From NCBI GenBank assembly GCA_022791395.1, contig JAAVZA010000038.1, positions 2,061-66,060 of the forward strand: a stretch of DNA of 64,000 nucleotides. The letters run 5' to 3'. Below the pieces are notes generated by a model. It saw nothing but the letters and a program-made list of their open reading frames with translations. It ran no database searches and was not told where the DNA came from. The stretch comes from Clostridia bacterium (GTDB taxonomy: Bacteria; Bacillota; Clostridia; TANB77; CAG-508). The position numbers and the translations under genes are program-made. Positions 40,651-43,079 of this stretch are shown piece after piece (within the stretch, counting starts at the first letter, position 1; every line of letters starts with the position of its first letter).

Positions 40651-41220
40651 TTGCAAAAGAAAATTATAAAAACTATAATTATAATAACAGCAATAATATT
40701 GATATCAATACTACTATTTGGGGTATTAAAAATTCAAAATATAGTATTAAAGAAGATATATCCAATTAAATATTCGGAATATGTATATAAATATGCAAAG
40801 GAATATAATGTGGATCCAACCCTTGTATTTGCAATAATAAAAGCTGAAAGTAATTTTAATCCTAATGTAGTATCTTCAAGTAATGCAATAGGACTTATGC
40901 AATTAATGGATGCAACAGCAGAAGAAATAGCAAGAAAATTAGAAATTAATTTTATAGAAAAAAAGTCGTTATATAATCCAGAATTAAATATACAACTTGG
41001 TACAAAATATTTTTCTAATCTAATGAAAGAATATAACAATAATTATTTATTAGCATTAACAGCATATAATGCTGGAATTGGTAATGTAAAGAGATGGATA
41101 GAACAAGGAATTATAAAAGAAGATGGTAGTGATATTGAAAATATACCTTTTAAGGAAACCAACAATTATGTAAGAAAGATTTTGAGAGATTACAAGATAT
41201 ATGAAGAACTTTACAAATAA
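40651..41220 (+). CDS. Lytic transglycosylase (SLT domain), membrane anchored
   Basis: TTG start after AGGAGAG. AESNFNPNVVSSSNAIGLMQLM and AYNAG motifs. Confidence 0.8.
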   Translation: MQKKIIKTIIIITAIILISILLFGVLKIQNIVLKKIYPIKYSEYVYKYAKEYNVDPTLVFAIIKAESNFNPNVVSSSNAIGLMQLMDATAEEIARKLEINFIEKKSLYNPELNIQLGTKYFSNLMKEYNNNYLLALTAYNAGIGNVKRWIEQGIIKEDGSDIENIPFKETNNYVRKILRDYKIYEELYK

Positions 41221-41256: not shown

Positions 41257-41285
41257 TTGACATATGCAAAAACATATGTTATCAT
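41257..41285 (+). promoter_or_regulatory. Sigma-A type promoter (TTGACA, 17 nt spacer, TATCAT) driving the repeat RNA
   Basis: TTGACA at 41257-41262 and TATCAT at 41280-41285. The spacer contains the LexA-like AAACATATGTTA (41270-41281). Confidence 0.6.
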
Positions 41286-41291
41286 ACTATT

Positions 41292-41394
41292 AACAAATAG
41301 GTTTCGCAACCCTACTTGCGAAGAACAAATGCGTAGGTGAACAAATAGGTTTCGCAACCCTACTTGCGAAGAACAAATGCGTAGGTGAACAAAT
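41292..41394 (+). repeat. Perfect 48-nt direct tandem repeat, 2 full copies plus 7 nt
   Basis: Read directly from the sequence. Each unit can form stem TTCGCAA/TTGCGAA, and its loop CCTAC can pair with the downstream GTAGG (H-type pseudoknot). Confidence 0.95.
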
Positions 41395-41400
41395 TTAATA

Positions 41401-41441
41401 GGGGGTTACTAATATTTTAATAGTAACCCCTCTATTTTTTT
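41401..41441 (+). terminator. Rho-independent terminator between the repeat RNA and the toxin gene
   Basis: Stem GGGGGTTACTA / TAGTAACCCC followed by TCTATTTTTTT. Confidence 0.85.
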
Positions 41442-41541
41442 ATTTTATAAGCAGTTATAGTTCAAGACATATTACTACATTCGTACTAATTTATTATTAT
41501 AGACTGAATATTAACTGTAAGCAAGTAGGAGGAAAAGAAAT

Positions 41542-42045
41542 ATGAAGGTTGAAGAAGGAAGATTTTATTTTTTAAAAGACAGTTTTTTCGAGAAGATGAA
41601 AGACACTAATTTATCGAACAATAAAGATAATGGAAATAAAAGACCATGTTATTATTGTTTTAAAGATAAGGAATATAACGAATTATTATGGTTTATACCA
41701 ATAAGTTCTAAAGTAGAAAAATATCAAAAAATATATATAGAAAAATTGAAAAAATATAAAAGAGTTGATACTTTAGTTTTTGGTAAGGTTAGTGGCAAAG
41801 AAAGAGTATTTTTAATACAAAATATGTTTCCAACAATAGAAAAGTATATTGAAGAAGTATATGTTAGGAAGAATTGTAAAGTAAAAGTAACAAATAGTTT
41901 AGAAAAAGAAATAAAAGAAAAAGCGAATCTTGTATTAGAAATCACTAAGAAAGGGAAAAGAGTGGTTTTCCCAGACATAATAAAGATGAGAGAAATATTA
42001 CTAGAAGAAATAGCTATAAAATCATTTACAAATAATAAGGGGTGA
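41542..42045 (+). CDS. Type III toxin-antitoxin system toxin, ToxN/AbiQ-like (CptN-like) endoribonuclease
   Basis: 167 aa. GRFYFLKDSFFEKMKD..., KRPCYYCFKDKEYNELLWFIPISSKVEKY and VFLIQNMFP parallel remembered ToxN/AbiQ blocks. The genetic context (repeats, terminator, toxin) is diagnostic. Confidence 0.75.
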   Translation: MKVEEGRFYFLKDSFFEKMKDTNLSNNKDNGNKRPCYYCFKDKEYNELLWFIPISSKVEKYQKIYIEKLKKYKRVDTLVFGKVSGKERVFLIQNMFPTIEKYIEEVYVRKNCKVKVTNSLEKEIKEKANLVLEITKKGKRVVFPDIIKMREILLEEIAIKSFTNNKG

Positions 42046-42077: not shown

Positions 42078-43079
42078 ATGTCAGTTTTAGTTACAGGTGG
42101 AGCAGGTTATATTGGAAGCCATACAGTAGTAGAATTATTGAATAGTGGAAAAGATGTTGTTATAATAGATAATTTTTCAAATAGTAAGCCAGAAGTATTA
42201 GATAAAATCAAAGAAATTACAGGTAAAGATTTTAAGTTTTATGAAATAGATTATTTAGATAGAAAAGCTTTAGAAAAAGTGTTTGAGGAAAACAAAATTG
42301 ATGCAGTTTTAAATTTTGCAGGATATAAAGCGGTTGGTGAATCTGTTCAAAAACCGATTGATTATTATACAAATAATGTTTCAGGAGCATTAGTATTACT
42401 AGATACTATGAAAAAATATGAGGTAAAAACGTTTGTGTTTAGTTCTTCTGCAACAGTATATGGAGATCCAGAAAAAGTACCAATTACAGAAGAATGTAAA
42501 ACTGGTGGAACAACAAATCCATATGGAACATCAAAACTGTTTATTGAACAAATTTTAAAAGATATTTATACATCAGATCCAACTTGGAACATATGTATAT
42601 TAAGATATTTTAATCCAGTAGGAGCACACCAAAGTGGACTAATTGGAGAAGAACCACAAGGAATACCAAACAACTTAATGCCATACATAGTAAGAGTTGC
42701 AAAGGGTACACTAAAAGAATTATCAGTATTTGGAAATGATTATAACACCAAGGATGGAACAGGGGTAAGAGATTATATTCACGTAGTAGATTTAGCAATT
42801 GGACATATAAAAGCCTTAGATAAACTAGAAAAAGAGAGGAAGGGATTATTTATTTATAATCTTGGTACAGGAAATGGATATAGTGTACTAGATATGGTAA
42901 AATCTTTTGAAAAAGCTACTAAAAAAGAAGTTGCATACAAAATTGCACCAAGACGTTCAGGAGATATTGCTGCTTGTTATGCAGATCCTAAAAAAGCAGA
43001 AGAAGAATTAGGATGGAAAGCAAAACTTGGTATAGATGATATGTGTAGAGATTCTTGGAATTATATAAAGGAAAAATAA
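42078..43079 (+). CDS. galE: UDP-glucose 4-epimerase
   Basis: ATG at 42078 after GAAGGAGGA. MSVLVTGGAGYIGSH, SSSATVYG and YGTSK motifs. Confidence 0.9.
   Translation: MSVLVTGGAGYIGSHTVVELLNSGKDVVIIDNFSNSKPEVLDKIKEITGKDFKFYEIDYLDRKALEKVFEENKIDAVLNFAGYKAVGESVQKPIDYYTNNVSGALVLLDTMKKYEVKTFVFSSSATVYGDPEKVPITEECKTGGTTNPYGTSKLFIEQILKDIYTSDPTWNICILRYFNPVGAHQSGLIGEEPQGIPNNLMPYIVRVAKGTLKELSVFGNDYNTKDGTGVRDYIHVVDLAIGHIKALDKLEKERKGLFIYNLGTGNGYSVLDMVKSFEKATKKEVAYKIAPRRSGDIAACYADPKKAEEELGWKAKLGIDDMCRDSWNYIKEK

Follow-up and report, generated by a model that had tools for sequence, protein, structure and literature searches.

A 64-kb stretch of DNA from a Clostridia bacterium (contig JAAVZA010000038.1), hereafter the window, carries at 41257-42045 (all coordinates are window positions) what we take, with a probability of about 0.9, to be a complete and probably active type III toxin-antitoxin module of the CptIN family. 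Carrying this reading are the anatomy of the locus, the family of its toxin in both sequence and predicted fold, covariation of a pseudoknot in the repeat RNA, and purifying selection on protein and RNA alike. Direct reading of the sequence together with scans gave the order promoter, repeats, terminator and toxin open reading frame, the arrangement by which type III loci have been operationally defined (PMC5086642). An earlier note on this DNA had described a strong promoter, perfect 48-nt tandem repeats, an intrinsic terminator and a 167-aa open reading frame, placed between a lytic transglycosylase gene and galE, and all of these elements were recovered. In the list below and in what follows, L-numbers denote fetched loci or genome stretches of relatives, L001, L002 and L003 being metagenome-assembled genomes of related Clostridia.

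41257-41285, forward strand: sigma-70-type promoter, with the -35 TTGACA at 41257-41262, a 17-nt spacer and the extended -10 TGtTATCAT at 41277-41285.
41292-41394, forward strand: cptI antitoxin gene, with two complete 48-nt units and a 7-nt third copy of AACAAAT.
41293-41340, forward strand: CptI unit 1, in the register ending ...GUGA; predicted H-type pseudoknot.
41341-41388, forward strand: CptI unit 2, identical to unit 1 by Tandem Repeats Finder (TRF) and BLAST.
41398-41441, forward strand: Rho-independent terminator between antitoxin and toxin, with a 14/15-nt stem, a 9-nt loop and seven T.
41454-41523, forward strand: extra 70-nt spacer between terminator and ribosome-binding site, in the window genome only.
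41527-41532, forward strand: ribosome-binding site AGGAGG, 9 nt before the ATG; kept in L001-L003.
41542-42045, forward strand: cptN toxin gene, 167 aa, ATG start; predicted CptN-family endoribonuclease with a Kid/MazF-like fold.
40651-41220, upstream flank: gene for an SLT-domain lytic transglycosylase (Pfam SLT, E 6.5e-38).
42078-43079, downstream flank: UDP-glucose 4-epimerase-type gene, galE (Pfam Epimerase, E 1.5e-58).

The toxin matched the NCBIfam equivalog NF047359 ('CptIN family toxin') along the whole profile (1-150 of 150; E 9.8e-56; 187.8 bits, the cutoff being 90). The sole solved structure matched by its sequence was PDB 4RMO_A, CptN of Eubacterium rectale (E 2.9e-28, residues 7-152). 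An AlphaFold2 model built on 26 homologues (mean predicted local distance difference test score 87.1, predicted template modelling score 0.83) returned the same structure as its top Foldseek match (E 5e-13, TM 0.81/0.87, root-mean-square deviation 2.3 A); the next matches were MazF, Kid-like and CcdB toxins at TM ~0.45, and a Kid/MazF-like superfamily relationship has been reported for type III toxins (PMC4627078). The earlier note had assigned the locus to toxin-antitoxin systems of type III, had guessed at CptIN and had proposed a hidden Markov model search as a check, and these matches, that to a type III toxin model included, uphold the assignment. Its description of the protein as 'ToxN/AbiQ-like' holds at the superfamily level and fails at the family level: the Pfam model ToxN_toxin (PF13958) scored 17.3 bits (E 0.0056), below its gathering cutoff of 25, and a search of PADLOC-DB gave no match to the toxin. 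The score below the Pfam cutoff places the toxin in CptIN rather than ToxIN/AbiQ, with which it thus shares superfamily-level kinship only. At E <= 1e-3, 503 toxin homologues were found. When the window toxin was aligned with 25 homologues and the 4RMO sequence (27 sequences in all), Ser55 and Ser56 were invariant, and Lys57 and Tyr107 were conserved in at least 90% of the sequences. Given the roles described for the active-site residues of E. rectale CptN (PMC4627078), in which the stacking tyrosine Tyr104 corresponds to Tyr107, we consider Ser55-Ser56-Lys57 and Tyr107 to be putative catalytic residues.

Upstream of the toxin, the repeat array (41292-41394) has a period of 48 and 2.1 copies with 100% matches and no indels (TRF score 206). 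It is the sole tandem repeat scoring at least 80 in the entire window, within which BLAST found no other copy of the 48-nt unit. That a perfect 55-nt duplication forms the only such array in 64 kb excludes a chance repeat, and a CRISPR-like array was rejected since the repeats are contiguous, without spacers. The junction motif AACAAAT occurs three times (41292-41298, 41340-41346 and 41388-41394) and so brackets both units; the copy number comes to ~2.1 because 7 further nt restore the junction motif on the 3' side of the last unit, a pattern of 2.1-2.3 copies that recurs across the family. In the inferred register ending in GUGA, with the CptN cut site likewise placed within the junction, the unit reads ACAAAUAGGU-UUCGCAA-C-CCUAC-UUGCGAA-GAACAAAUGC-GUAGG-UGA. 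In unit 1, the 5' tail ACAAAUAGGU is followed by a predicted 7-bp helix S1, in which UUCGCAA (41303-41309) pairs with UUGCGAA (41316-41322), whereas CCUAC (41311-41315) within the S1 hairpin loop is predicted to pair with GUAGG (41333-41337) as the 5-bp helix S2. Loop L1 would be the single base C41310 and loop L2 the 10-nt, A-rich GAACAAAUGC (41323-41332) with one internal U, leaving UGA as the 3' tail. The S1 hairpin is present in the minimum-free-energy fold.

Comparison among related loci supports this pseudoknot. We fetched 104 loci with CptN relatives from genome, viral and metagenome collections, 103 of them with enough upstream sequence; a 44-51-nt tandem repeat lies directly upstream of the toxin gene in 81 of the 103, with about two copies in 78 of these 81, and the related loci yielded 45 distinct CptI units. 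The remark in the earlier note that few, long repeats are reminiscent of CptIN is borne out both by this set and by the published figures of 40-48 nt and 1.9-3.4 copies (PMC3401426). Covariation was assessed by a column-based count on a MAFFT alignment of 32 distinct units, with column shuffles and register-slid alignments as controls. S1 and S2 cells were paired in 79.2% of cases compared to 62.9% in column shuffles, none of 500 shuffles reaching the observed value, and the covariation score was 0.445 compared to 0.184 in shuffles and at most 0.227 in slid controls. Both-side changes were seen at four pairs in each helix, and the variants of S2 include CCUAC/GUAGG, UCUAC/GUAGA, UUGGG/CCCAA, CCAGU/ACUGG, CUCGAU/AUCGAG and CCGG/CCGG, among others. 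The covariation supports the pseudoknot independently of the crystal structure, and the CptI unit thus appears to be an H-type pseudoknot in which L1 is very short and L2 is long and A-rich. The sequence class of the repeat RNA also varies together with the toxin lineage among the related loci. A first automatic finder of S1 and S2, which allowed G-U pairs and free anchoring, picked wrong stems and was dropped in favour of the column-based count. With that finder, cognate and non-cognate S2 pairings gave means of 4.2 and 3.9, too noisy a difference in A/U-rich RNA, and after anchoring on a CGC/GCG core the values were 5.0 and 4.0, still subject to the same noise.

Two departures from a pair of identical units were seen in the fetched set. 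At L006:5360-5440 and L016/L017:5830-5940 the repeats are non-identical, a feature described for tenpIN and said to be unusual for cptIN (PMC12283969); the two L006 copies differ in S2 in a compensated manner (CCUAU/AUAGG vs CUUGC/GCAAG), which would mean two different pseudoknots for one toxin. Single complete CptI units between two junction motifs were found at L001:5860-5930 and L004:5545-5625, L001 being the closest relative of the window, with a toxin 86% identical and the same synteny. These one-unit arrays may be artefacts, since assembly from short reads can merge the copies of a perfect 48-nt tandem duplication into one. Nor need a locus with one unit be in decay, given that in E. rectale one CptI unit by itself confers full antitoxicity (PMC4627078).

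L001, L002 and L003 carry cptIN at the same place, in the order polA-SLT-cptIN-galE. The flanking proteins are 93-95% identical to those of the window in L001 and 81-87% identical in L002 and L003, the third codon positions of the flanking genes 78-83% and 58-72% identical, and CptN 86% and 75-76% identical, respectively. The ratio of nonsynonymous to synonymous substitution rates (dN/dS) of cptN is 0.11-0.16, compared to 0.10-0.14 for galE, with dS ranging from 0.55 to >1.3. Over the same distances the 48-nt unit is identical in the window and all three relatives save for one substitution in one L002 copy, and the repeat array is identical to those of L002 and L003 at 102-103 of 103 nt. In the four syntenic genomes the repeat region is invariant alongside the -35 and -10 elements, whereas the terminator stem and the spacers drift. 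Conservation of the RNA unit where synonymous sites are near saturation, together with the low dN/dS of cptN, shows purifying selection on RNA and protein, which argues against a relic; a decayed pseudogene was rejected on the dN/dS.

The locus is nonetheless accessory, being present in some close relatives and absent from others. L109 and L110 are nearer to the window than L002 and L003 are (polA 88%, galE 91%) but have no CptN, their SLT gene and galE lying adjacent with a gap of 116 nt; L107 likewise has SLT and galE adjacent and no CptN. The statement in the earlier note that the locus is 'inserted' between these two genes is apt as a description of position and not as that of a recent event: synteny in four species-level genomes, with divergence in step with them, shows that the locus is not a recent insertion. 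Judged from these comparisons, the most economical history would be an old acquisition at the site with later loss in some lineages.

Transcription of the module would be set by the promoter and the terminator. The promoter (TTGACA, 17 nt, TATCAT) matches 11 of 12 consensus positions and carries the additional TG, and it was the top-scoring forward-strand site of the region in a promoter scan, a score that reflects consensus match only. From its spacing, transcription is predicted to start at ~41292, the first base of the repeat array. As the same scan found no promoter-like site at its threshold between the terminator and the toxin ATG, a single promoter upstream of the repeats would drive both genes, as is characteristic of CptIN. 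The terminator has the arms ATAGGGGGTTACTA (41398-41411) and TAGTAACCCCTCTAT (41421-41435), followed by seven T (41435-41441). Its G+C-containing hairpin is present in the minimum-free-energy fold, and the whole leader has z = -4.26 relative to shuffles. A consensus terminator scanner missed it because the 9-nt loop exceeds the scanner limit of 8. Although the stem sequence differs in L001-L003, alignment shows that the hairpin and the T-run are retained, and terminator-like hairpins 3' of the repeats were also found in the further related loci inspected. By analogy with the role ascribed to the terminator in setting the antitoxin:toxin ratio of type III systems (PMC5086642), it would be expected to halt most transcripts and so leave antitoxin RNA in excess of toxin mRNA.

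Two further features of the leader were noted. The promoter spacer region holds two CATATG hexamers (41261-41266 and 41273-41278) at a distance of 12 bp, and the two make up the inverted repeat ACATATG-N6-CATATGT (41260-41279). The -35, the -10 and both hexamers are unchanged in the window and L001-L003, whereas five of the six bases between the hexamers vary, so that CATATG-N6-CATATG looks like a candidate operator for some regulator. Part of this conservation is perhaps due to the overlap of the second hexamer with the TG of the extended -10, and no such element was found at the promoters of less closely related cptIN loci. The direct repeat TAAGCA (41448-41453 and 41518-41523) brackets the 70-nt spacer (41454-41523), which alignment shows to be absent from L001, L002 and L003. 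No further copy of the spacer turned up in the window or among the fetched loci, and the scan found no promoter-like site in it at threshold; it was accordingly rejected as a repeat element or a promoter.

In light of the structure and genetics of E. rectale CptIN, the following mechanism can be proposed. The single strong promoter would initiate transcription at ~41292, and most transcripts would stop at the terminator (41398-41441), giving an excess of a ~150-nt precursor with two identical 48-nt CptI units, while the few read-through transcripts would be translated to CptN, a 167-aa endoribonuclease of the Kid/MazF fold. At the A-rich, single-stranded junction GA/ACAAAU, of which there are three copies, CptN would cleave the precursor RNA of its own locus and so release two 48-nt units, each of which would form the H-type pseudoknot (7-bp S1, 1-nt L1, 5-bp S2 and 10-nt A-rich L2). 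Two such units and two CptN monomers would then alternate head-to-tail in a closed ring of 2:2 stoichiometry, with the active site occluded. If transcription of the locus stopped, or the locus were lost, the short-lived RNA would decay before the CptN protein, and the freed toxin would cleave cellular (and any phage) RNA and arrest growth. Self-processing of the precursor, the exact cut site, the 2:2 stoichiometry, toxicity and neutralisation are all carried over here from the E. rectale system.

Every CptIN-defining feature that can be tested in silico was found at the locus, and as the toxin scores below the ToxIN threshold, the locus is an additional member of the known CptIN family, which was defined by Blower et al. 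in 2012 (PMC3401426) and is best described for E. rectale (PDB 4RMO; Rao et al., 2015, PMC4627078). Akin to the window, E. rectale CptIN is chromosomal, comes from a gut Clostridia lineage and consists of a promoter, about two tandem repeats, a Rho-independent terminator and a toxin of ~160 aa; the two toxins are homologous (~40% identity), with the same predicted fold and the same Ser-Ser-basic and Tyr active-site residues. CptI of E. rectale, 45 nt long, forms an H-type pseudoknot whose L1 is a single base and whose A-rich L2 of 9 nt contains a kink U; its 3' end, G44-A45, carries a cyclic phosphate (PMC4627078). The window unit is predicted to have in common with it a one-base L1, an L2 that is likewise long and A-rich and contains an internal U, and a short 3' tail with G-A at its end. 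Its 48 nt lie at the top of the published range of unit lengths and its 2.1 copies within that of copy numbers. The window unit differs from that of E. rectale in total length (48 vs 45 nt), 5' tail (10 vs ~6 nt) and L2 (10 vs 9 nt), and the RNA sequences are unrelated, as expected from the strictly cognate pairing of CptI and CptN: toxin-RNA pairs of this family co-evolve and do not cross-react (PMC4627078).

The other type III families resemble the window locus less closely. ToxIN (Pectobacterium atrosepticum, Bacillus thuringiensis, E. coli) and AbiQ (Lactococcus) also combine a repeat RNA antitoxin, a terminator and an endoribonuclease that processes its own inhibitor into the pseudoknots that trap it, and their toxins belong to the same Kid/MazF-like superfamily. 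As opposed to the CptIN type seen in the window, ToxI units are ~34-36 nt long and present in 2.9-5.5 copies, and they form triplex-stabilised pseudoknots in 3:3 triangular complexes; abortive-infection activity is proven for ToxIN/AbiQ, unlike for CptIN. Like the window locus, TenpIN (Photorhabdus luminescens) has repeats that are long and few in number (39-57 nt, ~2 copies) and RNA with an A-rich stretch (PMC12283969), but it has a toxin of another family, the window toxin being CptIN by its NCBIfam equivalog, and it differs from CptIN in aborting coliphage infection and in its often non-identical repeats.

Several observations weigh against a complete and active CptIN module. The basic residue of the catalytic triad is Lys57 in the window clade instead of the Arg53 of E. 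rectale, so that Ser-Ser-Lys replaces Ser-Ser-Arg. Asp81 and Ser85, which are said to specify the scissile adenine in E. rectale, are conserved neither in the window toxin nor across the family alignment, and consequently the specificity of cleavage, and with it the precise position of processing, may differ. A protein of only ~40% identity is the source from which toxicity, neutralisation, processing and stoichiometry are extrapolated, and no fetched locus was more than 44% identical to the 4RMO protein. The gap between terminator and start codon is 100 nt, compared to ~30 nt in the syntenic relatives and as a further difference from E. rectale, and may alter toxin expression. No Rfam model recognises the RNA, searches at a permissive threshold over the locus and at the gathering threshold over the window giving chance-level matches only (GibS, 19 bits vs 115) and one tRNA; the RNA assignment therefore depends on our own covariation analysis of an automatic alignment. 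Finally, the wider neighbours (QueH, a Fic-domain protein, polA, SLT, galE, CmpB, an AcrB-type pump and a P-type ATPase) are housekeeping and transport genes, which provide no defence context. We regard the differences from the E. rectale type member as variation expected within the family. A rival reading is that the repeats act as a cis-regulatory leader, either an attenuator or protein-binding DNA repeats, for a gene of another function, or that the locus is a decaying relic. In its favour, the antitoxin role here is deduced from sequence analysis, no Rfam family matches the RNA, and the single repeat unit of the closest relative, L001, could be read as decay. Against this, the protein is unambiguously CptN, with Ser-Ser-Lys and Tyr intact and a dN/dS of 0.11-0.16; the repeat RNA covaries as a pseudoknot over dozens of loci and tracks the toxin lineage, and its conservation is perfect over distances at which synonymous sites approach saturation; and one unit is enough for full antitoxicity in E. 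rectale. We thus consider a leader or relic highly improbable and retain the CptIN module.

The role of this module in the window, whether addiction and stabilisation or phage defence, is not established, and the term 'abortive-infection' in the title of the earlier note is an unproven assumption. We see an even chance that CptIN acts here mainly as a selfish addiction module, which secures its own retention by post-segregational killing, with no demonstrated benefit to the host. E. rectale CptIN raised plasmid retention from ~50% to 100% in E. coli (PMC4627078), CptN homologues are encoded on 15 plasmids in PLSDB, and the locus has been kept at one core-genome site through species-level divergence. 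The clean loss in at least one nested lineage (L109/L110, where SLT and galE are adjacent) indicates that such addiction is not absolute, and purifying selection as strong as that on galE is easier to explain with a host benefit. One such benefit, possible though in our view doubtful as the natural role, would be abortive-infection defence, in which shutoff of host transcription by a phage, or degradation of the RNA, would release CptN and kill or arrest the cell before phage exit. Phage infection is aborted by ToxIN and TenpIN, both related families (PMC3401426); six IMG/VR viral contigs carry CptN relatives, one of these relatives inside a siphovirus tail-gene module, which is a typical site of phage-carried exclusion genes; and presence/absence variation among close relatives is as seen with accessory defence genes. 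By contrast, E. rectale and R. torques CptIN gave no resistance to six coliphages in E. coli (PMC3401426), E. rectale CptIN was without effect on >200 coliphages in the same host (PMC4627078), and, according to a review from 2016, CptIN has shown no anti-phage activity so far (PMC5086642). These published tests are heterologous and as such weak negatives, compatible with defence in the native host. In addition, the toxin has no PADLOC match, the locus lies outside any defence island and 50,697 isolated phage genomes gave no CptN match. Defence and addiction are compatible and not mutually exclusive.

It is also conceivable, if unlikely, that CptIN in the Clostridia lineage of the window is a long-resident, vertically inherited module that has been co-opted as a regulated RNase switch. 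This idea draws on the occupation of one polA-SLT/galE core site since before the species diverged (dS 0.55 to >1.3), on selection on the toxin as strong as that on galE with essentially no substitutions in the 48-nt RNA, and on the conserved operator-like CATATG-N6-CATATG in the promoter. If true, release of CptN would be under the control of some transcription factor, and would follow not only from phage infection or loss of the locus.

The distribution of CptN relatives is wider than reported in 2012, when a survey found cptIN on chromosomes only and none on phages (0 of 33; PMC3401426), in that we found them on plasmids and viral contigs. One viral contig (IMGVR_UViG_3300029906_000167) carries a cptIN locus (L019:2526-3474) in a siphovirus tail-gene module (context L019:176-6086), with the major tail/tail protein genes on one side and the tape-measure gene on the other. 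Upstream of its toxin, which shares 59% identity with that of the window, lies a repeat of 48 nt x 2.2. In PHROG, the family phrog_33519 carries the label 'unknown function'; it is CptN (E 1e-26 for the window toxin). The 15 PLSDB plasmids, a count based on toxin homologues alone (32-44% identity), include 9 from Clostridium, and examples are NZ_CP048628.1 of Megamonas funiformis (10538-11011) and NZ_CP075965.1 of Clostridium perfringens; all 15 homologues are annotated as 'hypothetical protein'. This is the usual label of the gene, which Pfam and PADLOC miss and whose RNA antitoxin is invisible to Rfam, so that the identification of the locus is of value for annotation. To our knowledge, only three CptIN members have been tested experimentally. 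The comparative set of ~100 loci and 45 distinct CptI units backs a pseudoknot so far seen in a single crystal structure; our understanding of type III systems is otherwise unchanged, the window locus being a well-conserved, unsurprising example with useful comparative data.

Two minor observations concern the surroundings of cptIN. Upstream of polA, a run of four open reading frames (34245-37896) includes three (487, 333 and 186 aa) with no Pfam match at E <= 1e-5 and one encoding a Fic/DOC-domain protein (35692-36300, E 3e-13). In relatives other than those discussed above, unrelated genes lie directly downstream of the SLT orthologue (L105:3571-6570, L106 and L111:3565-4315). The L105 cargo encodes proteins of 242, 133 and >700 aa and a zf_Tbcl mini-protein, that of L111 a 155-aa protein; looking for defence genes among this cargo with Pfam and PADLOC gave no match. 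With differing cargo, or none, after the SLT gene in different relatives, its 3' end looks like a variable cargo hotspot.

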